Made by a program: the position numbers and the translations under genes | The notes under the pieces: generated by a model | Database searches by the model: none | Seen by the model: the letters and a program-made list of their open reading frames with translations, nothing else | What the model was told of the DNA's origin: nothing | Assembly (NCBI GenBank): GCA_963843885.1 | Contig: CAWJMJ010000016.1 | Coordinates: 193,168-257,167 of the forward strand | Direction of reading: 5' to 3' | DNA from: an uncultured Acidobacteriota bacterium | GTDB lineage: Bacteria > Acidobacteriota > Vicinamibacteria > Vicinamibacterales > UBA2999 | DNA: 64,000 nucleotides | Part shown: positions 15,213-31,225 of the stretch, piece by piece | Layout of the letters: each line of letters starts with the position of its first letter | Position numbering within the stretch: position 1 is the stretch's first letter

Positions 15213-16165
15213 GCCCCGCCGCCGGTCTCACCGTGCTCCGCCCGGGCCTGCTCACCACGGTGCAGGACCTGGGACGGTGGGGCAGCCAGGCGCTGGGCGT
15301 GCCGGTCAGCGGCGCCATGGATTCGCTAGCCCACCGGTTGGCCAACGCGCTCGTCGGCAACCGCGACACGGCCGCCACGCTGGAGGTGACGCTGCTCGGG
15401 CCGGAGCTGCGTGCCGAGCGCCCGCTGGTCGTCGCCGTCGCCGGCGCCGAGTTCAGCCTCACCGTGGACGGCCGGCCCGTCCCGCACCAGGCGCCCTTTG
15501 CCATGGCAGCCGGCGCCGTGCTCCGCTTCGGCGCGCGCCACGGCGGCAGCCGCGCCTACCTGGCGGTCGCCGGAGGCATCGCCACGCCGGTCGTGATGGG
15601 AAGCCGCAGCACGCATCTCGTGAGCGCCATGGGCGGGCTCGACGGCCGCGCGCTGGTGGGCGGCGACGTGCTCCCGGTCACGCCGGCTGACCGCCCTGGG
15701 CTGCCGCGTGGCGCCCGTCCCTATACCCGCCCGGCGCCGACGGCCCCGTCGCGGCTGCGGGTCGTGCTCGGACCGCAGGACGCCTGGTTCTCGCGGGAGG
15801 CCATCGCGACGCTGCTGCGCGAGGAGTTCCGGGTGTCGACCACGTCGAACCGCATGGGCTTCCGTCTCGAAGGGCCGACGCTCGCGGCCGTACGCCTCGA
15901 CGAGCCGCTTTCGGAGCCGGTGCCGTTCGGCGCCATCCAGGTTCCGGCCAGCGGCCAGCCGATTCTGCTCATGGCCGATCGCCAGACCGCCGGCGGTTAT
16001 CCGAAGATCGCCACCGTCATTTCCGCCGACCTGCCCGTGGCCGGACAACTCGGTCCCGGTGACGTCATGCGCTTTACGGCATGCACGCGAGCCGAGGCGC
16101 GGGCCGCGCTGGTCACGCGCGAGCGCGAGCTGCTGCGAGCCATGCCCGAGGAGTTTCCGGTATGA
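15209..16165 (+). CDS. pxpC: 5-oxoprolinase subunit C / allophanate hydrolase subunit 2 (KipA family)
   Basis: LTVLRPGLLTTVQDLGRWGSQALGVPVSGAMD, SNRMGFRLEG, ADRQTAGGYPKIATVI. Intact. Confidence 0.85.
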   Translation: MSPAAGLTVLRPGLLTTVQDLGRWGSQALGVPVSGAMDSLAHRLANALVGNRDTAATLEVTLLGPELRAERPLVVAVAGAEFSLTVDGRPVPHQAPFAMAAGAVLRFGARHGGSRAYLAVAGGIATPVVMGSRSTHLVSAMGGLDGRALVGGDVLPVTPADRPGLPRGARPYTRPAPTAPSRLRVVLGPQDAWFSREAIATLLREEFRVSTTSNRMGFRLEGPTLAAVRLDEPLSEPVPFGAIQVPASGQPILLMADRQTAGGYPKIATVISADLPVAGQLGPGDVMRFTACTRAEARAALVTRERELLRAMPEEFPV

Positions 16166-17100
16166 GTGGCTTCGCCGAGGTGTTGCGGCAGGGCTTTCCG
16201 GACCTGGCGGCGCACGTCAACGCGCCGCTGGCGCCGCTGACCACCTTCAAGGTCGGCGGCCCGGCCGACTGGCTGGTCGAGCCGCACGACGGCGACACCA
16301 TCGTGCGGCTGCTGAAGATCGCGCACGCCCACGGCGTGCCGGTGACGATGCTCGGCGGCGGCTCCAACGTGCTCGTCGCCAGCGCCGGTGTGCGCGGGCT
16401 GGTCATCCGTCCCCGCGGCGGCGCGATGCAGATGGTCGGACGCGATCGCGTCCGCGTCGACGTCGCCGTGACCATCAACGCGCTGGTGCGCTGGACGGTG
16501 GCGCGCGGGCTGGGGGGCGTCGAAGCGTGGGCCGGCACACCCGGCACGGTGGGCGGCGCCGTCCATGGCAACGCGCACTGGCAGAACGCCAACATCGGCG
16601 ACCTGATCGACAGCGTGCGCGTCGCCGGCCGCGACGGCAGCTTGCGGCAGGTCGATCAGGACCGCATGGACTTCGGCTACGACACGAGCCGCCTGCAGCG
16701 CAGCGGCGAGATCGCCATCTGGGCGGCGCTCCGCGTGACGCCGGGGCAGGAGCCCGACCGGCTGCGGGCCGTGGCCCGCGCGTCGCTGGCCTTCCGGAAG
16801 CGGACCCAGCCGCTGGCGTCACCGAGCGCCGGCTGCATCTTCCAGAACCCGCAGCCCGGCCGCGACCGCGTGCCCGAAGGCATTCCGCCGTCGGCCGGAG
16901 CGCTGGTCGATCGCGCCGGGCTGAAGGGGCACGCCTGCGGCGGCGCGCGCGTGTCGCTGACGCACGGCAACTTCATCGTCAACGACGGCTCGGCGACGCC
17001 GGCGGACATCGCCGCGCTGGTCGAGCTGTGCCGCGCGCGGGTGGCTGACGCCTTCGGCGTGACCCTGCGCGAAGAGATCGTCAGGCTCGGCGTTTGGTAA
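16162..17100 (+). CDS. murB: UDP-N-acetylenolpyruvoylglucosamine reductase
   Basis: PLAPLTTFKVGGPADWLVEP, LGGGSNVLV, AGCIFQNP, GGARVSLTHGNFIVN. Intact. Confidence 0.9.
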   Translation: MSGFAEVLRQGFPDLAAHVNAPLAPLTTFKVGGPADWLVEPHDGDTIVRLLKIAHAHGVPVTMLGGGSNVLVASAGVRGLVIRPRGGAMQMVGRDRVRVDVAVTINALVRWTVARGLGGVEAWAGTPGTVGGAVHGNAHWQNANIGDLIDSVRVAGRDGSLRQVDQDRMDFGYDTSRLQRSGEIAIWAALRVTPGQEPDRLRAVARASLAFRKRTQPLASPSAGCIFQNPQPGRDRVPEGIPPSAGALVDRAGLKGHACGGARVSLTHGNFIVNDGSATPADIAALVELCRARVADAFGVTLREEIVRLGVW

Positions 17101-17116
17101 TGGACAGGAGCCCATC

Positions 17117-18409
17117 ATGTCGACGTTGCTCATCGAGGGAGGCCACCGGCTGTCGGGCGTGGTGGACGTGGAAGGCAACAAGAACGCTGCCTTGCCGCTC
17201 ATGGCCGCGACGTTGCTCACGACTGAACCGTGCGTGCTCACCAACGTGCCGCGCATCGTCGACGTCGACGTGATGGCGCGCCTGCTGCTCGATCTCGGCG
17301 CGGAGGTCGAGGGCATCGGCAGCCCGACGCTGCGCATCCGCTGCCAGGCGGTGACGTCGCACGAACCGGATCGCGCGCTGGTCGGCCGCCTGCGGGGGTC
17401 GGTGCTGCTGCTCGGGCCGCTGCTGGCGCGCGCGCGGCCGCGCCAGCGTGGCGCCGCCCGGCGGCGACTTCCCGGCCCGGCGCACCATCCGCACGCACAT
17501 CGAAGCGCTGACCGCCATGGGCGCCGAGCACGTGACCGGGGCAGGGCCACCGCCTCGAAGCGCCGCGCGGGCTGAAGGCGGCGTCGATCTACCTCGACGA
17601 GGCGTCGGTGACCGGCACCGAGACGGCGCTCCTGGCGGCGGCAGCGGCGCCCGGCATCTCGGAGATCCGCCACGCCGCCTGCGAGCCGCACGTCGTCGAG
17701 CTGTGCGAATTCCTGTCGCGCGATGGGCGTCGGCATCACGGCGCCGGCACGCACACCATCCGGGTCGAGGGCGGCACGCGGCTGGGCGGCGCGACCAAGG
17801 CGCTCTACGGCGACTACATCGAGGCCGGGAGCTGGGCGGTGGTTGGCGCGATCACCGGCGGGGAAATCGAGATCCGGGGGCGCGCGGGCCATCGACATGG
17901 AAGTCGTCACGGCCGCGCTGCGCAAGCTGTCGGTCGGCGCTGCGGCACGGACGACGACGTGCTTCGTGTGCGAGCCGTCGCGCGCTGATCGGCGCCGGCC
18001 GCATCACGACCGGGCTGTGGCCCGGGTTTCCGAGCGACCTGGTCAGCCTCGTGACCGTGCTCGCGACCCAGGCCGACGGGCGCACCCTGGTGCACGACTG
18101 GATGTACGAGCTGCGGCTGTTCGCGCTCGAGCAGATGAGCGGCATGAGCGCGGACCTGTTCCTGTGCGATCCGCACCGCATCATCGTCAGCGGCCCGGCC
18201 AAGCTCGCGGCAAGCCGCTCGACAGCCGCGACATCCGCTCGGGCATGGCGCTGATCGCCGCGGCGCTGGCCGCCACGGGACAGAGTCGGGTCGAGCCGCT
18301 CGAGACGGTCGAGCGCGGCTACGGCCCGCTGGTGGAGCGCCTGCAGACGCTCGGCGCGCAGGTGTCGAGAAGTCTGAGCGTCCGGGCGGCGGACGCGGCG
18401 GCGGTTTGA
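17117..18409 (+). CDS. murA: UDP-N-acetylglucosamine 1-carboxyvinyltransferase (frame broken many times)
   Basis: MSTLLIEGGHRLSGVVDVEGNKNAALPLMAATLL, TGTETALLAAAAAPG, WPGFPSDLVSLVTVLATQADG, DIRSGMALIAAALAATG, ERGYGPLVERLQTLGAQV. Confidence 0.9.
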
Positions 18410-20249
18410 GCGGCTTGGCCGGGCTCGGGCGGCGGCGGCAGCGCGGCTGCAGCGTGGGCACCGGCCGGCGTGGGCGCCGCCGGGCCGCTCGGCCGGCGGA
18501 ACGGCATCGGCGCGCGGGCGGGCGCGGCGGCTCGGGGGAATCGGCAGCGTCGATGACCGTGGAGGTGCCGGTGTCGCGGCCGACGCGGAACGGCCGCAGA
18601 TCCGCCTCGGTCAGGTCGAGCACGCGCACGATGTGCGGCGTCAGCGTGAGGATGATGTCGGTCTCCTGCGTCTCGCGTGCGGTTGTGCGCGAACAGCCGG
18701 CCGAGCAGCGGCAGGTCGCTCAGCCCGGGGACGCCCGACAGCGATCGTTCCGCTCGTCGTCGCGGATCAGCCCGGCGAGCATGTTGGTCTCGCCGTCGCT
18801 CAGCCGGATGACGGTGTTGATCTCGCGGTTGCCGAACGTCGGCAGGCCGCCGAAGCCGGCGCCCGAGATGCTGCTCACCTCGATCTTCAGGGCCAGCGAC
18901 ACCTCGTCGTCGTGATGCGTGCGCGGCGTGATGTCGATGTTGACGCCGATGTTCTCGTAGTTGAACGAGGTGATCGGCTGCTGGTTGACGCCGCCGGTGG
19001 CGATCGGCGCGAAGGTGGTGACCGGCACCGGCACCCGCTCGCCGAAGCGCGCCTGCGCCGGCGATGCCTTCCGACGTGCGCAGCTGCGGGTTGGCCAGCG
19101 TGCGGGTGTTGGCGTCGTTCTTGAGCAGGCGGTAGTAGAGGCCGGGCAGGTTGGTGAGGAAGACGCCGGACGGGCGTGAGGTTGCGCAGGTCGCGCAGCG
19201 TGAGGTCGCCGCGGTTGCACGTCGGCCTGGCCGTCGATGCCGGTCGGCGATTCGGCCGGCGACGCGATCTGCAGGCCGTACTCGCGCAGGCGCGTGCGAT
19301 CGACCTCGAGCAGCTCGACGTCGATCACCACCTCGGGCCGCGCCTTGTCGATGGCCTGCGATCGATGCGGCCGGCGGCGGCCACGCGCTCGGGCGTGTCC
19401 TTGATGCGAGATCGCGTTGGTGGCGGTCATCGGCGCCATCCGCCGCGCGTCGACGACGATGCGGAGGAGGTCGATCGTCTCCTTGAGGTCGGCGTTGCTC
19501 AGGTAGAAGGTGCGGACGACCTCTTCTTCGTACTCGCGCCGCTTGGCGGGCGTGTCGGGCACGATGGTGATGGTGCGCGGCGCGGTGACGCGCCAGAAGG
19601 TGCGGGTCGCCGGCGAGACCGACGTCGAGCGCCTCCGCGAGCGCCGGCCTTGCGCAGGTCGACGCTGATCGGGGCTGTCGCGGAAGGCCGGGTCGAACAC
19701 GACGCTCAGGTTGGCGAACTTGCCGATGGCGGTGAAGACGTCGCGGGCGCTGGCGTCGCGGAAGATGAGCGAGTCGGGCAGGATGACGTCGGCGGGCACG
19801 TCGGCGCCCGGCAGCGGCGCGCGAGGCTGTCCTTGATGAGCGCCTCGAGCGTGGTCTTGCCGCCGCGGTCGAGCGCCACCTGCGTCCGCATCTGGGCGCG
19901 CACGCGTGCGGAGTTCGTCTTGGATCTGCCCGTTGGCCGGGTTGAGTTCGGCGGCGAGCTGATATTCGATCAGCGCTTCCTCGGTGCGGCCGCTGGCGTT
20001 GTGACGCCGGGCGCGCGCGAAGTGGTCCTGCGCGGCGCGCAGCTTGGCCCGGTCGAGGGCGAGACGGACGGCGCGGTCATCGGGCCGGGCCCGCGCAGCC
20101 TTGGTGTATTCGGCGACGGCCAGGTCGTAGTCTTGCTGTTGTTCGGCGGCCCGCGCCTGGTTGAGCGACGAGGTGGAGGCGCACGCCGCCGTCAGCAGCC
20201 CGAAGACGAGGGTCGCGGCGAGCGCGAGCGGGCGGCGGCTACTGCGCAT
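18319..20249 (-). CDS. secretin-family outer-membrane protein with lipobox signal peptide and N-terminal TPR region (frame broken; 3' end uncertain)
   Basis: MRSSRRPLALAATLVFGLLTAAC (lipobox), TPR-like AEYTKAARARPDD...IEYQLAAELNP, secretin N-domains (DVFTAIGKFANLSVVFDP, RTFYLSNADLKETIDLL), secretin core NIGVNIDITPRTHHDDEVSLALKIEVSS...GFGGLPTFGNREINTVIRLSDGETNMLAGLI...LPLLGRLF. Confidence 0.8.
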
Positions 20250-20917
20250 TGGTGATGACGTCCACGCCCTTTGGGACGCGGAACGCGAAGAGCGTATCGG
20301 GCGGGCGCTGATTCTCCTTCAGATTCGAGAAGACGAAGCTCGAGCGGCCGCCTTGCCGGTCGAGCGCCACCAGGTGACGGAATCTGGTAGGTGACCGGGT
20401 CCACGCCGACCGCCAGCCATTCGAAGTCCTGGTCGGGCCGCTTGGCAACGAGCTTGAGCCCGAGCAGCCCTGGGGCGGCGCCCGGGAGGTCCATGGCCGA
20501 GGCCTCGAAGTCGCGCACCAGGTTGGCCTGGCCGGTCAGGAACAGCGCCGGGGTGGTGTCGGCTCCGGTCGGGGCCGGGCTGACCATGACCTGCTTGTCG
20601 GCGGGAAAGTAAGCGTAGATCTTGACGCCGTCGGAGACGAATTCCTTCTTCTCGGGGGCCGTGTAGACCCAGCGCATGCGCCCGGGTCGCTTGATGACGA
20701 CGGTGCCACGCTCGGTCGTCTTGGTGCGCAGCACGCCGCCTTCGTAGGTCTGCGTGAAGTCGCCAGCGAAGTCGCGCACCCCGTCGTAGCGCGCCTGGAC
20801 GAGGCGGGCCAGTTCCGCCGGGGCCGGTGCCGACCCCTGCGCCGCAGCCAGGGCGGCGGCGCACAGCACCAGGCTGAGCGTCAGCAGACGGCCGGGACGG
20901 CGATGGGGGCTGGCCAC
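20239..20917 (-). CDS. lolA: LolA-family outer-membrane lipoprotein carrier protein (one frame break)
   Basis: Signal peptide, then RYDGVRDFAGDFTQTYEGG...VVIKRPGRMRWVYTAPEKKEFVSDGVKIYAYFPADKQV. Its 3' end overlaps the secretin start by 11 nt. Confidence 0.8.
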
Positions 20918-20995: not shown

Positions 20996-21071
<76 letters not shown>

Positions 21072-21141: not shown

Positions 21142-22128
21142 TCAGCCCAGCCACGCGTGCAGGGTGTACTCGGCACGCACGTAGTGAGCGCCGGCCGCTT
21201 CGTAAACGCGAATGACCGCGAAGTTGTAGTTCTGTGTCTGGTACTCGCCCATGCCGCCGCGGGCGTGCGACCAGAGCGTGGCGTCGCGGATGAGGCTGGC
21301 ATAGGCGCCCGGGCTGTCGCGACGGCAGGCGCCGAGTCCGCCGCCGTAAATCGGCATGCCGAGGCTCGAGGCCGGCTGGCGCCGGCGGTAGGCGAGATAC
21401 CCATTGAGGCGCCCGTCCGAATCCTCCGAGACCAGGATGATGTCGGCCATCGCGCCGCTGACGCACTGGCGCGCCCACTCCACGTAGAGTTCGTCGGCGC
21501 GGGCCGAGGACAGGTGCGGGTCGAGGTGGAAGCGGCCGCGGTAGCCCTGATAGGCCTCGCGCGTGATGTCGATGATGGCCGGGTGATCGTCCGGGCGCGA
21601 TGCGCGGATGACGCCGACCGTCCGGACGTCGCGCGGCGGATCCTTGACCGGCCGCATGATGTAGGTGACGAGCGCGTCCATCGTGCGGAAGCCGTGCTCC
21701 TCGAGGACGCCGAGGGTGTCGAGGTCGGCCACGTCGACGCGCGCGGTCAGGTGCTTCACCCCGGCGGCCTGTGCCGCCGCGCAGGCGGCGCCGATGACGG
21801 CGACGCGATCGTCGAGCGAAGCGGCCGGGGTCGCGACGACGTAGTCGATGCGGGCCATGGGCAGGCCGAAGAAGGCGCTGTCCCAGTCAAGTGGGCGGGC
21901 CACGACGGCCGCCCGCGGGCGCTCGTCGCCCACCACGCGGCTGAACTCGCCGGGCACGGCCAGGGCGCTGGTCACCTCGGCCTGCAAAATGGCGAGCTGC
22001 TCCTTGCGCGAGTAGGTCCGGTACTGGCGGTACGGCTTGAAGGCATGACCTTCGAGCAGCGCCGTCAGGTCGTCAGGGCGCAGAGCAGCAAGCGGCAGCG
22101 GTTCGGACATCGGCAACAGGGGCCGCAC
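21142..22128 (-). CDS. WecD-like GNAT N-acetyltransferase (TDP-4-amino-4,6-dideoxy-sugar acetyltransferase family) with ~90-aa N-terminal extension
   Basis: Intact 328-aa ORF. RPLDWDSAFFGLPMARI, LEEHGFRTMDALVTY, GRFHLDPHLSSARADELYVEWARQCV and QTQNYNFAVIRVYEAAGAHYVRAEYTLHAW parallel, from my memory of it, the E. coli WecD sequence in the same order. Confidence 0.65.
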   Translation of the reverse strand: MRPLLPMSEPLPLAALRPDDLTALLEGHAFKPYRQYRTYSRKEQLAILQAEVTSALAVPGEFSRVVGDERPRAAVVARPLDWDSAFFGLPMARIDYVVATPAASLDDRVAVIGAACAAAQAAGVKHLTARVDVADLDTLGVLEEHGFRTMDALVTYIMRPVKDPPRDVRTVGVIRASRPDDHPAIIDITREAYQGYRGRFHLDPHLSSARADELYVEWARQCVSGAMADIILVSEDSDGRLNGYLAYRRRQPASSLGMPIYGGGLGACRRDSPGAYASLIRDATLWSHARGGMGEYQTQNYNFAVIRVYEAAGAHYVRAEYTLHAWLG

Positions 22129-22177
22129 AGGGCCAAACGGTGCGCCATTGTAACCGGCGCGGTGCCGGTTCCATGGC

Positions 22178-24112
22178 TCACGGCACCTTGACGAAGACCT
22201 CGTTCGAGGGCCGGCTCAGCCCGCACGCGTTCTGGGCCAGCACGCGCACGTAGTAGTCGCCGTTGGGCGCGTTGCCGGCCAGGGCCGTGGCGGTGGTGCC
22301 GGTGGCGGAGACGACCAGGTTGCTGAGGCCAGGCGCGCTGCCGACCGCGAACGTGTAGCCGGTTGGCGGTGTGCCGGCCGGGGCGGTCCACGTGAAGGTC
22401 AGGAACGAGCCGTTCTTGGTGAAGGCAAGGTTGGTGGGCGGCTGCGGCACGGCGGTGCACGCCGCTACGGTGAGCACGATCTCGTTCGAGGGCGCGCTGA
22501 AGCCGCACACGTTGCTGGACTGCACGCGCACGTAGTAAGTGCCGTAGGCGACGTTGCCGCTGAGGCTGGTGACGCTGGCCGGATAGTCCTGGACGCCCAG
22601 GTTGGCGAGGCCAGGGCCGGTCCCCGCCAGCAGGCGATAGCCCTGGACCATGCCGGTCGAGGGCGCCGTCCATTGCAAGTTGACCAGCGTGTCGTTCGAC
22701 GATCCGGAGAGCGTGCCGGGCGGGCCCGGCGGCGTGCAGGCCCCCACGGTGACGGCCCGTTCGACCGAGGACAGGCTCGTGCCCAACGCGTTCTGGGCGC
22801 GGACCCGCAAGTAGTAGGTGCCGGCCGGCACATTGGGGATCGCGGTCGAGGTCACCGAGGCTGGATAGGTGGCCGAGCCCAGGTTGTAGACGCCGGGGGT
22901 GTTCCCCGCATCGAGGATATAGCGTTGGGCCACGCCGCCCGTCGATGCCGGCGTCCACGACAGCGTGATGGTCGAGAGGACCGCGGCGACGGTGAAGTTG
23001 GTGGGCGGGTCGGGCATCTTCGTTTCGGCGGCGATGCCCCGGTATATGGTGGTGATGCCGTTGACGTCGTCGGCGTCCAAGCCGCTCGGCGCCGTCGTGC
23101 AGCTGCCCTTGGGATTCGGCGCCATCATCGCCGTCGGGACGTTCGAGTGGCCGAGGCCGAGCGCGTGGCCGAGCCCGTGGGCCACCGCGTCCTCGAAGCA
23201 GCCGGGCGCGGTTGATTGCACGCCGGAGTCGTTGAGCACGACGAAGCCCTGGATGAACTTCTGGAACTCCGTGCCGTTGACGATGCGCCGGTCGCCGGTC
23301 GTGTAATAGCCGCCGCCGACCACCCAATCGTTGACGCCGCCGCACGGGTCGTTGAACGAAACCGCGATGCGGCCGTTGCCGGTGAAGTCGGCCGAGCAGC
23401 CCCCGGTATAGGCGCCGCCCACCTGCAGGTCGAGGTCCATGCCGGAGTTCCGCCACAGGTTGACGGCGGCGGTGAATCGCTGGGGCGTGGCATGCGTCCA
23501 GGTCGCGGGCACTGTCCCGGCGTCGACCACGACCGCGGTGCGCTGATCCACCTCGTGCCAGCGCGCCGGATAGCTGTCCGTGCTCAGGAACGCGAAGCGC
23601 GGGCCAGGCTGTCGCGTGAAGGCCGCGTACTCCGGCGGCACCGCGTCGTAGTGCTGCAAAAGTGCTCGGGGCCGGGCCGCCAGCTCGCGCTCGACGGCCG
23701 CCGCGAGGCCGGCGTCGTAGGCCCACTTGCCGCGGCCGAGGCCAACGGTGTGCAGGGTCCGCTCGGCGCCGCTGGTGGTGAGGGCCACCAGTACGTCCTC
23801 ACCGACGCGGAAGGCGGCCTGCTCGGGCAGCCACAAGCCGATGCCGCCGGCCTCGCCGCCACGCTGCTTGAGCACGAGCCGCGGCGGCACATCCTGGCCC
23901 AGGAGCACCCGCGCCACGTCGAGCGCAACGTAGGTGTGAATGGTGCGGCCCTGGTCGTCCCAGCGCGCTTCCAGGCTCGCCACGCGGCCGCTCACGACCA
24001 GCGTGCCGGCAGGCGCCTCGGGCAGCAGCGCGGCCGGCTGCGCCAGCGCCGGGGCAACGGAAAGGACGGCGAGGAGCGGCAATACGAGCGTGGCAACAGT
24101 CGGAGGGGTCAT
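22178..24112 (-). CDS. secreted matrixin-like (M10 metzincin fold) protein with Glu-to-Gly in the zinc motif, followed by three Fn3-like modules
   Basis: Intact 644-aa ORF with signal peptide LPLLAVLSVAPALAQP. Residues 312-322 read HGLGHALGLGH, against the metzincin motif HExxHxxGxxH, followed by S and the Met-turn AMM. The C-terminal ~280 aa are three ~90-aa modules, e.g. PPTNLAFTKNGSFLTFTWTAPAG...GDYYVRVLAQNACGLSRPSNEV. Confidence 0.7.
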   Translation of the reverse strand: MTPPTVATLVLPLLAVLSVAPALAQPAALLPEAPAGTLVVSGRVASLEARWDDQGRTIHTYVALDVARVLLGQDVPPRLVLKQRGGEAGGIGLWLPEQAAFRVGEDVLVALTTSGAERTLHTVGLGRGKWAYDAGLAAAVERELAARPRALLQHYDAVPPEYAAFTRQPGPRFAFLSTDSYPARWHEVDQRTAVVVDAGTVPATWTHATPQRFTAAVNLWRNSGMDLDLQVGGAYTGGCSADFTGNGRIAVSFNDPCGGVNDWVVGGGYYTTGDRRIVNGTEFQKFIQGFVVLNDSGVQSTAPGCFEDAVAHGLGHALGLGHSNVPTAMMAPNPKGSCTTAPSGLDADDVNGITTIYRGIAAETKMPDPPTNFTVAAVLSTITLSWTPASTGGVAQRYILDAGNTPGVYNLGSATYPASVTSTAIPNVPAGTYYLRVRAQNALGTSLSSVERAVTVGACTPPGPPGTLSGSSNDTLVNLQWTAPSTGMVQGYRLLAGTGPGLANLGVQDYPASVTSLSGNVAYGTYYVRVQSSNVCGFSAPSNEIVLTVAACTAVPQPPTNLAFTKNGSFLTFTWTAPAGTPPTGYTFAVGSAPGLSNLVVSATGTTATALAGNAPNGDYYVRVLAQNACGLSRPSNEVFVKVP

Positions 24113-24139
24113 CGTCTTCCAGTCATACCACGGGTGTGG

Positions 24140-25795
24140 CTACGGGTTATGGGGCGGGCGCGCGATGGCCGTTCCCGGCGTGGCGTGGGCCAGGGGTGCG
24201 GCCGGCGGCGCTGCGGGACAGCCGAGGTCGAACAGCCGATAGCGATCGTGCGCGTAGGACAGCTCGATGCTACGCCGCCGCGCCAGGTCAACGGCCATCT
24301 GCGGTTGCGTGGCCTCGAGCGCCGGCCAGTCGGCCACGGCCACGAAGCACACCCCGCGCCGGTCGTGCAGGTAGTCGACCACGGCCGGCGAGATCGATGT
24401 CGCGTCGAAGCTCCAGCCCTTGCGATGCGCGAAATAGAGCAGCATCGGCGAGTTGCTGCCGTAGCGCTCGTACTCCACGGTGGCGATGAGCGCGTCTGGC
24501 GGCGTCACCTGGTCGATGGCCCATCCGGCGTCGACCACGGCCTGGTTCAGGTTGTCCGGCCGGTAGAGATACGAGATGGCGCCGCTGTCGCCGAAGCCCA
24601 TGACGGCGGTGGCCACCAGGGCGGCGCTGGTCGCGGCCGCCACCGCGTGCCGCCAGGTTCCGAAGCGCGTGTAGAAGGGCCACGAGAAGAGCGGCGCCGC
24701 GGCCATCCCGAAGTAGAGCGCCAAGGGCGGCAGCGTGGGCAGTTGGTGGAACTCGTGCGGCAGCTGGCCGGCAAGCGACACGGCCACGAGCGACAGCGCG
24801 GCCAGCATCCACACGTCCACGACCGAACGCGCCCGGCCGGACCAGCGCCAGCTGGCGAGACCGGCCAGGGTGAGCAGCGTGAACACGGGCGTGAGGTGCA
24901 GCGCCCAGTAGCGCCGGGCCAGTTCGCTGGCCGTGTCCCAAGTGAGCAGGTCGCGACGCGTCCAGTGCGACACGGTCGTGAACGGCCCGGCAAACTGCGC
25001 GATGTCGCCGGGATAGGTGCCGGAGGGACGGAGGATGGCCTGCGTGAGCCCCGTTTCCAGAAAAATCTGGTCGGCGTGCAGGTACCAGAGCGCAATGGCA
25101 CCCACGGCAGCCAGCGGCGCGGCCACGAACCACGGGTCGGCCAGGGTCCGGCGCAGGCCCCTGCTGGCCAGGCCGGTCCACACCACCGGTCCGAGGACCA
25201 GGATGGCCGGCAGCTTGACCAGGCCGGCCAGCGCCAGGGCCACCGCGCCGAAGAACGCGTGTCGCCACTGGCCCGTCTGCGTGTAGGCCACGTAGCCAAG
25301 CACCGCCGCCACCGAAAAGGCCAGCATGGGCGTGTCGGAGAGCGGCGTGCGGCCGAAATACACCACGCTCGGCGACACGGCCATGAGGAAGGCGGCCGCC
25401 CGTCCGGCCGGCTGGCTGAAGAGGCGAGTGCCCAGCCGGTAGGTCCACCACACCGTGGCCAGCGAGAAGCCCACGGGCACGAGCCGCCCGGCCACGTCGC
25501 TGATGCCGGCCATACGCCACGCCAGCGCCATGAGCAGGTGCAGCAGAGGGAACTCGAGCCCGACGCGGCCATCGGGGCCACCCCAGCTCACGGAGGGATA
25601 GAAGAAATCGATCGGCCCTTCGGTCCACAACCGCGCGATGTCGGCGTTGGTGACCTGGCGCCAGCTATGGGCGTCGATGAACGGAACGTCGATGCGGTAG
25701 AGACGGAAAGCCAGGGCCAGCGCGAGGATGGCCAGCGCGCACCAGTCCACGCGCTGCCCGGCGCGGGAGGACACGGCGGAATCGGGTGACGTCAC
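24140..25795 (-). CDS. GT-C fold membrane glycosyltransferase (PMT_2 / ArnT-like, GT39/GT83-type)
   Basis: Intact 551-aa ORF with many hydrophobic segments. The N-terminus ALAFRLYRIDVPFIDAHSWRQV...LVPVGFSLATVWWTYRLGTRLF...AAFLMAVSPSVVYFGR is typical of the ArnT/PMT family. Confidence 0.7.
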   Translation of the reverse strand: MTSPDSAVSSRAGQRVDWCALAILALALAFRLYRIDVPFIDAHSWRQVTNADIARLWTEGPIDFFYPSVSWGGPDGRVGLEFPLLHLLMALAWRMAGISDVAGRLVPVGFSLATVWWTYRLGTRLFSQPAGRAAAFLMAVSPSVVYFGRTPLSDTPMLAFSVAAVLGYVAYTQTGQWRHAFFGAVALALAGLVKLPAILVLGPVVWTGLASRGLRRTLADPWFVAAPLAAVGAIALWYLHADQIFLETGLTQAILRPSGTYPGDIAQFAGPFTTVSHWTRRDLLTWDTASELARRYWALHLTPVFTLLTLAGLASWRWSGRARSVVDVWMLAALSLVAVSLAGQLPHEFHQLPTLPPLALYFGMAAAPLFSWPFYTRFGTWRHAVAAATSAALVATAVMGFGDSGAISYLYRPDNLNQAVVDAGWAIDQVTPPDALIATVEYERYGSNSPMLLYFAHRKGWSFDATSISPAVVDYLHDRRGVCFVAVADWPALEATQPQMAVDLARRRSIELSYAHDRYRLFDLGCPAAPPAAPLAHATPGTAIARPPHNP

Positions 25796-25862
25796 GGGTA
25801 CGAAGCCAGGGGCGGACCGGTGCTCCGCGTCCGCCCCTCGGCTCTCGATGTCCTGACCGATG

Positions 25863-27189
25863 CTAGGGGACGAACCCGGCCTGGAGGAATGGCTGCAGCG
25901 TCCAGCGCGCCCCGAAGCTCACCGCCGGCGGGTTGGGGCTCGTGATCTCGGTGGCCTGGCCGGTGGGATTCGGACCGCAGTGGCCCCCGATGACATCCCA
26001 GGCGCGGACCTTGAACGTGCCCTCGTCGCCCTCATCGCCCCAGTTGTAGGTGATGACGTCCTGCGACATGTCGCCGACGTTGGCGCGCTTCCAGTTCAGG
26101 CCCCAGCGCTTGTCGCGCTCGCGCAGCTTCGACACGAGACGGAACAGCCAGCGGTTGTTGCCGCCGAACTCGTGGCAGGAGTTGCGCAGGTCGGCGGGAT
26201 AGGCCGCCGCGATCTCGCGCACGACGCCAAGGACGTAGCGACGGCGCCGGCAGCGCCGTCCCGGGCGCGGGATCGGCGGCGCGAGGCTGCATCTTGAGCG
26301 AGTTCTGGTCGACCACGATGTTGGCCGAGGCCGCCGGCCCCTGCGCGCCGCACGCGAACACCGCGGCGACGTCGAGGCGCCACACGCCCTCGGGCAGCGT
26401 GTTGCTGAAGCGGGTGACGGCCGCGCCCACCGGAACCGACCCGATGGCGGCGCCGCCCTGATAGCCGGTCAGCACATATCCGGCCGCGCCGGGAACCGGG
26501 GTCCACGACACGCTGACGAAGCCGCCGAAGACGCTCGTCGACAGCGCCGGCGCGGGGGGCGTGTCACACGCGCCGCCGGCCGGCATGTTCAGCGTGAACT
26601 CCGGCGAGTCGGGGCTTTCGCCGCCGGCGTTGACCGCCACGACGCGGAAGTAGAACGTGCCGGCGGGCATGGGGCCGTAGGCAAAGATGTTCGTGCCCAG
26701 GTTGAGCACGGCATCGCTGCCGCCGGGGTTGACCCCGGCCTTGAGCCGGTAGCCGAGCGGCGCGCCGCCGCCCGCCCCGGGACTCCAGGTGGCCACGATG
26801 CTCGTGCCGTTGCGCGCCACGACCAGGTTCGTGGGCGCCGCCGGAGGCGTCGCCAGGGTGGTGACCGTGCCCGACACTTCGTTGGAATACTGCAGGCCGC
26901 CAGCGGTGACGGCGATGACCCGCGCGTAGAACGTGCCGACCGCCGGAGCCACCACGGCACTGGTCGTGACATTGCCGACGCTGAGAGAACCCAGGTATGC
27001 GCCCGGGACGACCCCGGCTTGGAGCACGTAATCGGTCGCGCCCGCCGTGGCGCTCCATGTGAACGTCACGTTTGCGCCCGACACCGCGGGGGCGTTCATG
27101 ACCGGCGCCTGCCGCGCTTCAGCCATCCCCGCCATGACGACCGACACCGCGATGGCGGCAAGAGCTACTGACCGTGAGACTACGTGCAT
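25863..27189 (-). CDS. secreted protein: signal peptide + three Fn3-like modules + conserved C-terminal domain of unknown function (paralog 1; one frame break near 26.24 kb)
   Basis: Start MHVVSRSVALAAIAVSVVMAGMAEA with SD AAGGAGAG upstream. The modules lie in ORF 26032..27333 and the C-terminal domain in ORF 25863..26222. The 1327-nt span (3n+1) agrees with a one-base indel. Confidence 0.75.
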
Positions 27190-27334
27190 CCTGACTCTCC
27201 TTGTTCGACTTCCGCAGGCCGGCGAGTGGCACCGGGCACGGACTGTTGCTCGACCATGCTTCCAGGGGAAGAATGGCCCGGGGGAGTCTAACACGGCTGG
27301 CAGGACCGCGCAGTTCCGCTCCACACACGACAAA

Positions 27335-27366
27335 GCCCGTCGCCTCTCGGGGGAGAGACGACGGGC
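27335..27366 (-). terminator. hairpin downstream of Fn3 paralog 2
   Basis: The minus strand reads GCCCGTCGTCTCTC-CCCC-GAGAGGCGACGGGC followed by TTTGTCGTGTG (imperfect stem, short U-tract). Confidence 0.45.
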
Positions 27367-27390
27367 CGGTCGTCGGGCGAGGCCGAACGG

Positions 27391-28716
27391 CTAGGGTACC
27401 GCCGGGAAGCCGGCTTGCAGGTAGGGCTGCAAGGTCCACTTCGCGCCGGTGGACCACAGCACGGTCTGGTTGATCCACGCGGGCGTGGGGTTGCTGCCGC
27501 AGTGGCCGCCGATGACGTCGACCGCATGCACGTAGAGCGTGCCCTCGTCGTTCTCGGGGCCGTAGTTGTAGGTGATGATGTCCTGCGACAGGTCGCCGGT
27601 GCGGGCGCGCTTCCAGTTGAGGCCCCAGCGCGTGTCCTCGCGCCGCAGGCGCTCGACCAGGCGGAACAGCCAGATGTTGTTGCCGCCGTGTTCCACGCAC
27701 GAGTTCCGCAGTTCATTGGGATAGCGGCGCGCGATCTCTTCGACGACGGCGGCGCGGTTGGGGAGCGGCAAATAGTTGGGCGGCGTCGGCGCCGGTGGAT
27801 TCGGCGTCCGGTTGCCCGACCCGCCCGAGCCGGTCACGACGATGGTCGCGTCGGCCGAGGTCGCGATGGCCCCGCAGGCATTGGCCACGGTGACGCGGGC
27901 GTAGTAGGTGCCGGTCGGGACACCGGGGTAGGACGCGGCGGTCTGCGACGGCGCGAAGGTCTGGCTGTGGGCCGCGGCGCCGCCTGGCGAGGTCGAGAAG
28001 TCGAGGCGGTAACCAATCGCTCCGGGCACCGGCGACCAGCCGACGCCAACCGTCGAGCCGCTGACCTGAACCTGCACGGCCGGCGCCGAGGGGGTGACAC
28101 ACGCCGCCGGCGAGACGACCAGTTGCACCTCGTTCGACGCGCCGCTGGTCCCGCCGGCGCTGACGGCGTGCATGCGGGCGTAGTAGGTTCCAGGGGGCAC
28201 GTTCTCGAGTGAGGACTGCGGGGCGATTGGCATCGGCAGGACACCCTGCGTCTGGCCGGGCGCGCCACCGGCGGCGAGGAGGATGCCGCTGAGCGGTCCG
28301 GGCGGCAAGGTCATGCTGAAGGTGATGGTGGTGCCCGACACCGTCGCGGAGAGACCGGTCGGAGGCTGGGGCGGCCCTTGCACCGAGGTTACCGTCACCT
28401 CCACGACGTTCGACGAGGCGCTCTGGCCCTGCGCGTTACGGGCCAGCACCCGCAGGTAGAACCTCCCTTGGGGCGCCTGGACGGAGAACGATGTCAGTCC
28501 TCCCAGTTCGTAGCCGGCCAGCATCAGGCCGGGCGTGGTCCCGGCCTCGGCCCGGTAGCTGGTGGCACCGGGCACGGCGGTCCAGGCGGCCGACACCGTC
28601 TGGCCGTTGGCCTGGGCTTGGAGGACCGGGGCGGCCAGTTGGGCGGCCGCCAGCGAAGGAAGAGCCAGGGCGACGAGAGCGGCGATGCAAGCGCGGGCAC
28701 ACGAGTTCATGAACAC
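27391..28716 (-). CDS. secreted protein: signal peptide + three Fn3-like modules + conserved C-terminal domain of unknown function (paralog 2, intact)
   Basis: Intact 441-aa ORF with signal peptide CIAALVALALPSLAAAQ. Three ~90-aa modules (W..VPGA.SY...G..PG....RFYLRV.A.N..G.S..SN). C-terminal domain LRNSCVEHGGNNIWLFRLV...RWGLNWKR...DVIGGHCG...WTLQPYLQAGF. Confidence 0.8.
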   Translation of the reverse strand: MFMNSCARACIAALVALALPSLAAAQLAAPVLQAQANGQTVSAAWTAVPGATSYRAEAGTTPGLMLAGYELGGLTSFSVQAPQGRFYLRVLARNAQGQSASSNVVEVTVTSVQGPPQPPTGLSATVSGTTITFSMTLPPGPLSGILLAAGGAPGQTQGVLPMPIAPQSSLENVPPGTYYARMHAVSAGGTSGASNEVQLVVSPAACVTPSAPAVQVQVSGSTVGVGWSPVPGAIGYRLDFSTSPGGAAAHSQTFAPSQTAASYPGVPTGTYYARVTVANACGAIATSADATIVVTGSGGSGNRTPNPPAPTPPNYLPLPNRAAVVEEIARRYPNELRNSCVEHGGNNIWLFRLVERLRREDTRWGLNWKRARTGDLSQDIITYNYGPENDEGTLYVHAVDVIGGHCGSNPTPAWINQTVLWSTGAKWTLQPYLQAGFPAVP

Positions 28717-28756: not shown

Positions 28757-28920
28757 GACCAAGGCTCCAGTAAACTCGCACGTTAACGTCTCGGCGGGCG
28801 CGGGCCCAGACGCGAATGACACTATTGGTGACGGCTGGCTGACGGTACGGGGACGCTTGCCTGACGACTCCCCGTTGGGTCGCGACGCCACGTGAGTGCA
28901 GGCCGCAACCCGCCCGCCGA

Positions 28921-28926
28921 TATACT
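28921..28926 (+). promoter_or_regulatory. candidate -10 box (TATACT) 10 nt upstream of the pfkA ATG
   Basis: TATACT-GAGTAACTCA-ATG with no Shine-Dalgarno sequence. Confidence 0.35.
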
Positions 28927-28936
28927 GAGTAACTCA

Positions 28937-30017
28937 ATGTCTCCAGAACATCGCAAGATTGGCGTGCTTACCGGCGGCGGCGACGCTCCCGGCCTCAATG
29001 CGGTCATCCGCGCCGTGGTCAAGGCCGGGTGCAACGCCGGCATGGAGGTCATCGGCCTCGAAGACAGCTTCGACGGCCTGCTCGACCCGAGCCGCTCCCG
29101 CCCGCTCACGCCGCACGACGTCACCGGCATCCTGCGGCTGGGCGGCACCATCCTGGGCACGACCAACAGCGGCAACCCCTTCGAGTACCCCACCGAAGCG
29201 GGGAAGGCCGACTACTCCGACCGGGTGGTGCAGACCTTCGGTGAAGATGGGACTGGACGCCCTGGTGGTGATTGGCGGCGACGGCACGCTCGCCATCGCC
29301 CACCAGTTCTACCTCAAGGGCATCCCCGTCGTGGGCGTGCCCAAGACCATCGACAACGACATCGTCGGCACGACCAGCTGCTTCGGCTTCGATACCGCGG
29401 TGTCCTTTGCCGCCGACGCCATCGACCGGCTGCACACCACCGCCGAGGCGCACAAGCGCATCATGGTCGTCGAGGTGATGGGCCGCTATGCCGGCTGGAT
29501 TGCGCTGCACGCCGGCATCGCCGGCGGCGCCGACGTCATCCTGATCCCCGAATGCCCTACGACGTCGAGAAGGTCGCCGAGCACATCCGCAAGCGCGATG
29601 AATGGGGCGCGCGCTTCAGCATCGTCGTGGTGGCCGAGGGCGCCAAGCCGGTGGGCGGGAAACTGACGCTGCGGTCGGAGGCGCGCCCGGGCGTGGTCGA
29701 GCGGCTGGGCGGCGTGGGCGGCCACCTGGCCGAGGCGCTGCAGAAGCTGACGGGGAAGGAAAGCCGCAGCGTGCGTGCTCGGGCACCTGCAGCGTGGCGG
29801 CTCGCCGACGCCGTTCGACCGCGTGCTGGCCACGCGCTTCGGCGCCAAGGCCGTGGAGCTGGTGCGCCGCGGCGTGTTCGGCCGGATGGTCGCGAACAAC
29901 CCGCCGGACATCGTCCACATCCCGCTCTCGGATGTCGTCGGGCGGTGCAAGACCGTGCCGCTCGATTACGACCTGCTCGCGACGGCCCGGGCGCTGGGCG
30001 TCTCGTTCGGCGACTGA
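28937..30017 (+). CDS. pfkA: 6-phosphofructokinase (ATP- or PPi-dependent), three frame breaks
   Basis: [81 protein letters not shown]. Confidence 0.88.
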
Positions 30018-30045
30018 CGGCGGGCCGCCGGGCGGCTGCCGTCAG
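30014..30045. terminator. GC-rich hairpin between convergent pfkA and thrC
   Basis: CTGACGGC (30014-30021) pairs with GCCGTCAG (30038-30045). There is no U-tract on either side. Confidence 0.3.
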
Positions 30046-30069
30046 GCCGGTGCGGTCCGGCGGCTGGCG

Positions 30070-31225
30070 TCAGCGCACGGTGTGCAGCACGTCGAGGTAC
30101 TTCAGCGCGCCGCCGGTATTGAACAGCACCACCGTCTCGTGCCGGTGCATCCTGCCCGACGGCGACGAGCGCGCGGATGGCCGTGAGCGCGGCGCCGCCC
30201 TCGGGCGCGGCCGAGATGCCCTCGAGGCGGCCGATGACCAGCATGTCCTCGACCATCTGCGCGATCCGAGACGGCGAGCGCGGTGCCGCCGCTCTCGCGA
30301 ATGGCGCGCAGGATCAGGAAGTCGCCGATGGCGCGCGGCACGCGCAGGCCGTCGGCCACGGTGGTCGCGTTCTCCCAGGGCGCCGCCGTCTCCGCCCCGG
30401 TCTCGAACGCGCGCACGATCGGCGCGCAGCCCTCGGCCTGCACCGACACCATCTTCGGGCGCTTCGGCGCCGATCCAGCCGATGCGCTTCCATCTCCTCG
30501 AACGCCTTCCACATGCCGACGAGGCCGGTGCCGCCGCCGGTGGGATAGATGATCCAGTCGGGCAGCTCCCAGCCGAGCTGCTCGGCGAGCTCGTAGCCCA
30601 TGGTCTTCTTGCCCTCGACGCGGTACGGCTCCTTCAGCGTCGAGACGTTCGTACCACCCGAGCGGCTTGCCCTTTTCGGCGGCCATGCGGCCGGCGTCGG
30701 TGATCAGCCCGTCGACCAGCGTGACGTGGGCGCCGTAGAGGCGGCATTCGTCGACGAACGGCTGCTTGGCGTCCTTCGGGATGAAGACCTCGCAGCGCAG
30801 GCCGGCGGCAGCCGCGTAGGCGGCCGCGGCGTTGCCGGCGTTGCCGGCCGTGGGCAGCGCAATCGTGTCGGCGCCGAGCGCCTTGGCGCGCGTGATGGCG
30901 GCCGACTGGCCGCGCGCCTTGAACGAGTTGGTCGGGATTGAGCGACTCGTCCTTGATGAACAGGCGGTCGAGGCCGACGGCGGCGCCGAGACGCCGCGCG
31001 TGCAGCAGCGGCGTGAAGCCTTCACCGAGCGTGACCGGCGCGTCGCCGGCAGCAGGGGCAGCATCTCGCGGTAGCGCCACATGTTCGGCTCGCGGCCGGC
31101 CAGGACTGTCTCGCGACCACGCCCGCGCCGTCCTCGAGGTCGTAGCGGGCGAGCAGGGGAAGCGCCGCAGGCCGGCACAGGAAGTGACGCTCGCGCGGGT
31201 CGAACGGCCCGGCGCCGCACGGCAC
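30070..31225 (-). CDS. thrC: threonine synthase (frame broken many times)
   Basis: N-terminal zinc-ribbon-like PCGAGPFDP...LLARYDLE, MWRYREMLP, VTLGEGFTPLL, ESLNPTNSFKARG (PLP lysine motif), LPTAGNAGNAAAAYAA, IIYPTGGGTGLVG, VVLFNTGGALKY. Confidence 0.88.

Follow-up and report, generated by a model that had tools for sequence, protein, structure and literature searches.

Metallopeptidase homologues without catalytic residues are known as partners of envelope proteins, as in the case of the degenerate LytM (M23) factors EnvC and NlpD, which activate cell-wall amidases. Among the metzincins, ADAM7 (HQLGH) and ADAM29 (HHLGH) keep their histidine ligands, have lost only the general-base glutamate, and are listed as pseudopeptidases working by protein–protein interaction (PMC11266112). 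The metzincin examples in the part of that article considered here are all ADAMs (M12), with no M10 protein among them. Here, we describe a five-gene locus in a 64,000-nt stretch of contig CAWJMJ010000016.1 from an uncultured Acidobacteriota bacterium of the order Vicinamibacterales (the window, whose positions serve as coordinates). The locus encodes a matrixin-like protein of this kind, two paralogous exported proteins ending in an undescribed C-terminal domain (CTD), a membrane glycosyltransferase of the GT-C class, and a WecD-like acetyltransferase. It is an old, lineage-specific exoprotein gene cluster, and its interest lies in the CTD and the pseudo-metzincin rather than in a demonstrable new system.

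Compared with its nearest described analogues, ADAM7 and ADAM29, with which it shares the kept His ligands and the isolated loss of the general base, the pseudo-metzincin of this locus is bacterial and exported, and its glutamate is gone in an entire bacterial order. The likeness to EnvC and NlpD is conceptual, namely that of a metallopeptidase homologue without catalytic residues partnering envelope proteins; these two factors differ in belonging to clan M23 and not to the metzincins, and the CTD is not a known amidase. The original prediction for this DNA had pointed to five co-oriented minus-strand genes with no described system of the same composition. The list of open reading frames (ORFs) bears out this arrangement, the domains assigned to the five proteins proved correct by Pfam, NCBIfam, and PDB matches, and a literature search found no description of the gene set.

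Conservation of the Locus in Relatives

A scan with the CTD profile, limited to one genome per species, gave 77 loci, which were then searched by tblastn with the proteins of the window. A matrixin-like gene lies with the CTD gene in 39 species-level loci, which come without exception from Vicinamibacterales or unclassified Acidobacteriota metagenome-assembled genomes (MAGs). Each of these 39 has, between pfkA and lolA, a run of one to three tandem CTD genes and directly behind it, in the same orientation, the matrixin-like gene. The expectation that the five genes would form a co-conserved, adjacent unit was not borne out, as only the CTD and the matrixin-like genes are always adjacent (39 loci). 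Beyond them, the flanking genes pfkA, a threonine-synthase-like PALP gene, frr, pyrH, tsf, rpsB, and lolA keep the same order in relatives, the nearest of which are Vicinamibacterales or Acidobacteriota MAGs.

Relatives differ in the cargo that separates the acetyltransferase gene from the matrixin-like gene. In L006, a close relative assembled from short reads and also used as the frame reference, it comprises a reprolysin with an intact HELGH motif and Fn3 (fibronectin type III) modules of the same type as those of the window, together with a 672-aa multi-pass membrane protein without a Pfam match, possibly another GT-C-like enzyme. The cargo of L079 (12233-16186) is a Peptidase_S8 protein with fn3, and that of L081 (1-4927) consists of a GDSL-lipase-like protein and a PA14 protein. 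The pfkA–lolA site behaves as a hotspot for exoprotein genes.

Such turnover could mean that the genes form no functional unit at all and are neighbours by regional synteny, with lipid A or a polysaccharide as the target of the GT-C, nucleotide-sugar synthesis as the task of the acetyltransferase, and the Fn3 proteins as unrelated exoproteins collected in the hotspot. The conserved gene order from pfkA to lolA and the variable cargo speak for this possibility, as do the CTD proteins of Myxococcota, which work without these partners. Nevertheless, the CTD and matrixin-like genes have stayed adjacent and co-oriented in 39/39 loci despite the turnover around them, and their products share the type of Fn3 stalk and the number of modules, so that the absence of any functional link is rather unlikely, even if it deserves serious consideration.

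The position of the block against a tRNA-Ala gene and its differing gene content among relatives would also be expected of an island, mobile or of recent acquisition, that had inserted at that tRNA. Nevertheless, the G+C content is about 70% across the window and 0.69-0.72 in the block, without a compositional step, the ORFs revealed no integrase, transposase, or repeat, and the block occupies the same pfkA–lolA position in 39 species-level genomes. An island is therefore highly improbable, and it was rejected on G+C content and synteny. Owing to this uniform composition and to the synteny across the order, the block is regarded as an old resident and not as a recent insertion.

A C-Terminal Domain Family without Described Relatives

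The CTD is a domain of about 120 aa, for which 149 domains define the signature SC..G..LR..D.RWG.N.KRG..S.D...Y..D.I.gHCG. The R, S, D, and D of this signature are 97-99% conserved and the His 85%, and the near-invariant charged or polar residues are R, K/R, N, S, D, D, and H. An AlphaFold2 (AF2) model, with a predicted local distance difference test (pLDDT) of 86.5 and a predicted template modelling (TM) score, pTM, of 0.86, exhibits three helices followed by five strands. When 1.84 billion representatives were searched with the CTD profile, at least 711 clusters (defined at 50% identity) were found at E<=1e-3, and 122 at E<=1e-30. A word-indexed search returned 36 proteins, mostly pieces of frameshifted genes.

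The CTD is a new domain family with no described counterpart in Pfam, NCBIfam, or PDB. Pfam gave no match for the domain itself, either in the proteins of the window or in 109 members of the family, NCBIfam gave none, and a PDB profile search returned 0 matches at E<=10. Among phage sequences, the best match in PHROGs had an E of 0.048, and a search of GenBank phages gave nothing usable. Foldseek comparison of the model with the PDB yielded only noise (best E 1.5, TM about 0.15), and the sole structural relatives are models of uncharacterised tailed-phage proteins (E 2e-5, TM 0.63).

Several assignments were considered and set aside. The RNase-like names among the Foldseek matches (angiogenin, onconase, and colicin D) belong to noise-level matches and carry no weight, and a barnase-like fold, suggested by the order of helices and strands, was dropped because no microbial RNase appears among the fold matches. 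A papain/NlpC-like Cys-His dyad, which the SC and GHCG motifs bring to mind, was rejected as the leading idea, given that the Cys are lost together and the His is replaced in some copies. Divergent copies lack both Cys at once, and not every copy has the His, so that the two Cys more likely form a disulfide than take part in such a dyad.

The position of the CTD in its proteins is highly uniform. In 146 diverse best representatives it stands at the very C-terminal end, followed by a median of 2 residues, and it occurs as a single copy in 132 of them, as a double copy in 13, and as a triple copy in 1. Its Pfam partners are non-catalytic beta-sandwiches (fn3, Ig_Rha78A_N, TIG, DUF5719, CarboxypepD_reg, and PKD) and, in two cases, a pilin domain of type IV secretion systems (T4SS). 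The CTD proteins of Myxococcota are lipoproteins made of two tandem CTDs and little else, and none of the partner genes of the window lies alongside. Across the 31 CTD loci without a matrixin-like gene (26 Myxococcota-type and 5 from Acidobacteriota), no gene is conserved besides the CTD gene.

Some of these loci have features of their own. The Acidobacteriota loci L043, L051, L052, and L055 share neighbours only among themselves and represent, together with L066, another kind of CTD locus, in whose vicinity pfkA, the matrixin-like gene, and the acetyltransferase gene find no match; L066 holds a 42%-identical GT-C homologue 8 kb from its CTD gene. In L086 (4876-7750) and L087 (10785-13610), different CTD genes on separate contigs (P0040 and P0087) have the same three genes in their vicinity, coding for a methyltransferase, LPG_synthase_TM, and a radical SAM protein; in L087, these also adjoin GT4 glycosyltransferases and an epimerase. 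In L085, a CTD is fused to a T4SS-pilin domain (P0158, 1566-3374) about 3.6 kb from a PrgI gene (7026-7433; Gram-positive-type T4SS), a context in which the CTD could act on the cell wall. MAG records titled 'uncultured Bifidobacteriaceae' (L007, L022, L025, L042, L048, and L049) hold the high-GC Vicinamibacterales-type locus, and L074, from a record titled 'Enterobacterales', resembles the Myxococcota-type loci in holding a CTD gene without a matrixin-like, GT-C, or pfkA match; these records appear to be taxonomically mislabelled.

The residue pattern of the CTD raises the possibility that the domain is catalytic, of a new kind, and hydrolyses cell walls or glycans; the Fn3–CTD proteins would then be lytic enzymes, periplasmic or secreted, with the pseudo-metzincin as their regulator. 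Ser, Asp, Asp, His, Arg, and Lys are near-invariant over the 149 domains, the CTD is the sole non-spacer domain in its proteins, and the phage proteins and the pilin fusion near PrgI fit such a role, Gram-positive-type T4SS clusters usually including a cell-wall hydrolase. On the other hand, neither sequence nor fold matches a known hydrolase, the His, at 85% conservation only and next to a Cys that covaries with the second Cys, looks structural, binding modules, more typically than catalytic domains, come in tandem copies, and the phage and T4SS contexts are single observations. A hydrolase is consequently an improbable explanation for the domain.

A Matrixin-Like Protein without Its General Base

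Like the matrixins and other M10 metzincins, the matrixin-like protein holds the HxxxHxxGxxH spacing with a Met-turn after it and matches M10 above the gathering score. PF00413 (Peptidase_M10) scores 39.5 bits against a cut-off of 24, with only model positions 111-158 of 159 aligned, and the catalytic domains of MMP-12 and MMP-9 in the PDB match at E of about 1e-5. Unlike matrixins, it bears a region of about 130 aa without a family match before the metzincin domain and three Fn3 modules behind it.

The original prediction had described its zinc motif as mutated, and this stands. The motif of the window, HGLGHALGLGH, keeps the three His and has Gly in place of the catalytic Glu, departing in this position from HExxHxxGxxH. 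The Glu position is occupied by G, V, or N, and never by E, in 40/40 orthologous loci, where HxxxHxxGxxH/D and the Met-turn persist, and H312, H316, H322, and M330 are invariant in an alignment of matrixin-like proteins. Because all 40 loci lack the Glu, sequencing error is ruled out as the cause. Distant homologues (P0317 and P0318) retain HEIGH. Judged by its sequence, the protein is a conserved pseudo-metzincin that lost the general base across the lineage.

A further variation concerns the third zinc ligand, which is Asp instead of His (GLGD) in L018, L035, and L049. Snapalysin-type metzincins likewise have Asp as the third zinc ligand.

The Shared Fn3 Stalk

The three Fn3 proteins have hydrophobic N-termini ending in AxA-like sites, as read from the sequence, and had been proposed to share one type of module. 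This was borne out by the comparison of the Fn3 arrays of the matrixin-like protein and gene 5, which are 35-38% identical (E 8e-21). Pfam recognises fn3 in the matrixin-like protein at 68.3 bits in 3 stretches, and titin Fn3 arrays match it at E 1e-24. In the CTD paralogues, which are 45% identical to each other (E 1e-92), PF00041 (fn3) scores 25.9 and 25.7 bits against a cut-off of 25; the latter value belongs to gene 5, where fn3 is the sole Pfam match and the PDB sequence matches are to Fn3 only. Gene 5 aligns unbroken to its L006 orthologue with 65% identity.

Two Cys are associated with several of the Fn3 modules (22181-23020 and 26300-28620), one in the linker ahead of the module (..ACT/ACD..) and the other in an N-x-C-G loop close to its end. 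This pair may form a disulfide conserved within the modules, as would suit an oxidising environment outside the cytoplasm.

The Membrane Glycosyltransferase and the Acetyltransferase

The GT-C protein resembles the GT39/GT83 enzymes (Pmt and ArnT) in its PMT_2 and PMT matches, its multi-pass GT-C fold, and its first-loop acidic motif. It matches PF13231 (PMT_2) with 48.4 bits (cut-off 26.1, E 1.6e-12) and PF02366 (PMT) with 31.3 bits (cut-off 22.7, E 1.9e-7); the motif residues D36/D41, H43, W45, and R46 are conserved, and its relatives are named 'glycosyltransferase family 39' or 'ArnT family' in the source records. Among the named matches, this GT-C subfamily occurs only in Vicinamibacterales/Acidobacteria. 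No PDB sequence match was found at E<=0.1, and identity to every solved GT-C is 13-19%. The AF2 model (pLDDT 89.8) has 27 PDB matches in Foldseek at E<=1e-3, all of them GT-C enzymes, with the best E for STT3 (3.5e-10) and the best whole-chain superposition for ArnT (5ezm, TM 0.60/0.61); AglB, PglB, and Pmt also match. These matches include an enzyme that modifies lipid A (ArnT) as well as enzymes that modify proteins (STT3, AglB, and Pmt), so that neither sequence nor fold tells the acceptor. The WWDxG motif is absent from the 551 aa, where the sole WW lies in a membrane helix (VWWTYRLG), which rules out an oligosaccharyltransferase (OST) of the STT3 type.

The acetyltransferase is, as far as its sequence indicates, related to WecD, and is not an equivalog. 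The best NCBIfam matches are the WecD equivalogs, yet these remain below their cut-offs (NF008212, 53.3 bits vs. 219; TIGR02382, 33 vs. 195.1). Kinship at the level of the fold is supported by the two-domain WecD structure 2fs5, which matches residues 77-323 at E 1e-6. Unlike WecD/RffC, the dTDP-fucosamine acetyltransferase, the protein of the window has 75 extra N-terminal residues, and no other gene for enterobacterial common antigen or dTDP-sugars was found beside it among the ORFs of the window. In relatives, the acetyltransferase gene comes next after the matrixin-like gene in only 6 loci; in 13 it shares the strand at a greater distance, in 7 it is on the opposite strand, and in 4, despite at least 6 kb of flank, it was not seen. 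This protein is considered a syntenic neighbour whose membership in the block is doubtful.

The placement of the GT-C gene could be decided in 37 of the 39 loci. In 10 loci it stands between the CTD and matrixin-like genes, as in the window, and in 9 it is divergent, upstream of the CTD genes and beside pfkA, being adjacent to the CTD genes in 19/37. In the remaining 18, which include the close relatives L014, L018, and L026, it is not found between pfkA and the matrixin-like gene. The locus can do without it in roughly half of the species. An adjacency that survives rearrangement suggests a linkage to the CTD genes.

These data bear on the original prediction that the block serves glycosylation, of which the domain calls and the common Fn3 type hold, and the consistent linkage of the GT-C and the acetyltransferase to the Fn3 genes does not. 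In a dedicated module, the WecD-like enzyme would help to make an acetamido sugar linked to polyprenyl phosphate, with which the GT-C would O-glycosylate the Pro/Thr/Ser-rich linkers of the Fn3 proteins on their entry into the periplasm, in a similar way to Pmt of Actinobacteria. The GT39/PMT_2 signature, a fold that matches protein-glycosylating STT3, AglB, PglB, and Pmt, the adjacency in two arrangements, and the second large multi-pass membrane protein in the L006 block are all consistent with it. They are countered by the 18 loci, and all Myxococcota CTD loci, in which the GT-C is missing from the block, by a 50%-identical GT-C paralogue that lies elsewhere in an unrelated context with no CTD gene nearby, and by the whole-chain superposition, which is best with a lipid A transferase. 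The acetyltransferase is variable in distance and strand and far under the equivalog cut-off, the ORFs of the block include no polyprenyl-phosphate glycosyltransferase (GT2) gene, and the STT3 type is excluded. Glycosylation of the Fn3 proteins is thus possible, yet is not indicated to be the block's purpose, and a dedicated module of this kind is quite unlikely.

Gene Models and Sequence Quality

The features of the locus are collected in Table 1. The intergenic gaps of the five-gene block measure 49, 27, 67, and 201 bp, and promoter, terminator, and Rfam scans of the block turned up only the tRNA.

Gene 4 is split over two frames, represented by the ORFs 26032-27333 and 25863-26222. The frameshift junction at about 26236-26238 places its CTD in the second frame, according to the three-frame translation and the repaired protein, and the gene aligns with its L006 orthologue in two high-scoring segment pairs, in frames -2 and -3. 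The remaining four genes of the block each match L006 proteins in a single piece, whereas pfkA requires at least two frames. The near-absence of indels claimed earlier for the block consequently appears to hold for these four genes compared with pfkA, and not for gene 4. As the adjacent pfkA also requires several frames, the frameshift of gene 4 is probably an assembly error. The secretin-like and LolA-like ORFs (18720-20917) also look frameshifted, with overlapping alternative-frame ORFs holding the conserved ends; the frame breaks in these and in pfkA are likely long-read assembly errors rather than marks of pseudogenes.

Table 1. Features of the locus and its surroundings (window positions, except for the last row, which refers to L006).
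Feature	Position	Strand	Remarks
WecD-like GNAT acyltransferase	21142-22128	minus	328 aa, predicted cytoplasmic
Matrixin-like pseudo-metzincin	22178-24112	minus	644 aa; signal peptide, ~130-aa N-terminal domain, metzincin domain, 3 Fn3 modules
3-module Fn3 array of the matrixin-like protein	22181-23020	minus	Pfam fn3, 3 stretches
Zinc-binding motif HGLGHALGLGH	23147-23179	minus	Residues 312-322 of the matrixin-like protein; Met-turn (AMM) after it
GT-C membrane glycosyltransferase, GT39/ArnT-like	24140-25795	minus	551 aa, C-terminal soluble alpha/beta domain
CTD paralogue 2 (gene 4)	25863-27189	minus	~441 aa once repaired; architecture as paralogue 1; 1 frameshift
Frameshift site of gene 4	26232-26244	minus	...LPAPS / YVLGVVREIAAAY...
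CTD paralogue 1 (gene 5)	27391-28716	minus	441 aa; Sec-type signal peptide, 3 Fn3-like modules, Pro-rich linker, CTD
CTD of paralogue 1	27394-27768	minus	~residues 317-441, undescribed alpha+beta domain
tRNA-Ala (CGC)	20996-21071	minus	Block boundary on the lolA side; ARAGORN; Rfam tRNA 61.4 bits
pfkA	28892-30703, start near 28955	plus	Other block boundary
Extra genes of L006 between the matrixin-like gene and the acetyltransferase gene	15491-17284 and 17332-19350

A Proposed Role for the Locus

The explanation that we prefer, still tentatively, is that of a chromosomal, Vicinamibacterales-specific locus for Sec-exported proteins on a stalk of three Fn3 modules, with the CTD as their working end and the pseudo-metzincin as a non-proteolytic partner. 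Its conserved core is formed by one to three tandem genes for a stalk with a CTD, followed by a gene for a metzincin-like head on the same kind of stalk. The CTD would be an autonomous alpha+beta domain braced by a disulfide; it is taken as the working end because its proteins have no other domain beyond spacers and because it works in another phylum without these partners. It is expected to bind, or possibly to cleave, an anionic polymer of the envelope or the extracellular space, such as a glycan or peptidoglycan. Binding to such a polymer is favoured by the invariant basic, acidic, and polar residues and the frequent tandem duplication of the domain, and catalysis is possible in view of the T4SS-pilin fusion near PrgI and the phage proteins of the same fold.

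The most likely role of the matrixin-like protein would be binding or scaffolding without proteolysis, possibly in partnership with the CTD proteins, which have the same stalk. The GT39/ArnT-like enzyme would be a facultative passenger that may modify the Fn3 proteins or the envelope, and the acetyltransferase would be a syntenic neighbour only.

Four points weigh against this proposal. A metzincin lacking the Glu could retain weak activity via another base. The pairing of CTD and matrixin-like genes is limited to one order in which the whole pfkA–lolA region is syntenic, so that their adjacency could be a matter of inheritance. The occurrence of the GT-C gene next to the CTD genes in two arrangements hints at a link closer than that of a passenger. 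Lastly, the localisation beyond the inner membrane, the ligand, any activity, and the protein partnership are inferred.

A more far-reaching version would see in the CTD a new fold with a new activity or specificity (for instance, acting on envelope glycans or peptidoglycan) common to Acidobacteriota, Myxococcota, T4SS-pilin fusions, and tailed phages. In Vicinamibacterales, a dedicated pseudo-metzincin on the same stalk would control or target it, and the GT-C, in the loci that have it, would O-glycosylate the stalks, as a protein glycosyltransferase outside Actinobacteria. We give this combination only a slim chance of being correct.

Biological Significance

Should none of these readings be true, the block would be an ordinary lineage-specific exoprotein gene cluster. 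If the link of the GT-C to the Fn3 proteins is true, it would point to protein O-glycosylation by a GT39-type enzyme in Acidobacteriota. The loss of the Glu across an order with the zinc site kept makes the matrixin-like protein a clean natural example of a bacterial pseudopeptidase, and the CTD family, being widespread, with a confident predicted structure and no described relative, is a good target for structural and functional work. The locus belongs to the Vicinamibacterales, abundant soil bacteria that are poorly cultured and whose exported proteins are almost unstudied.

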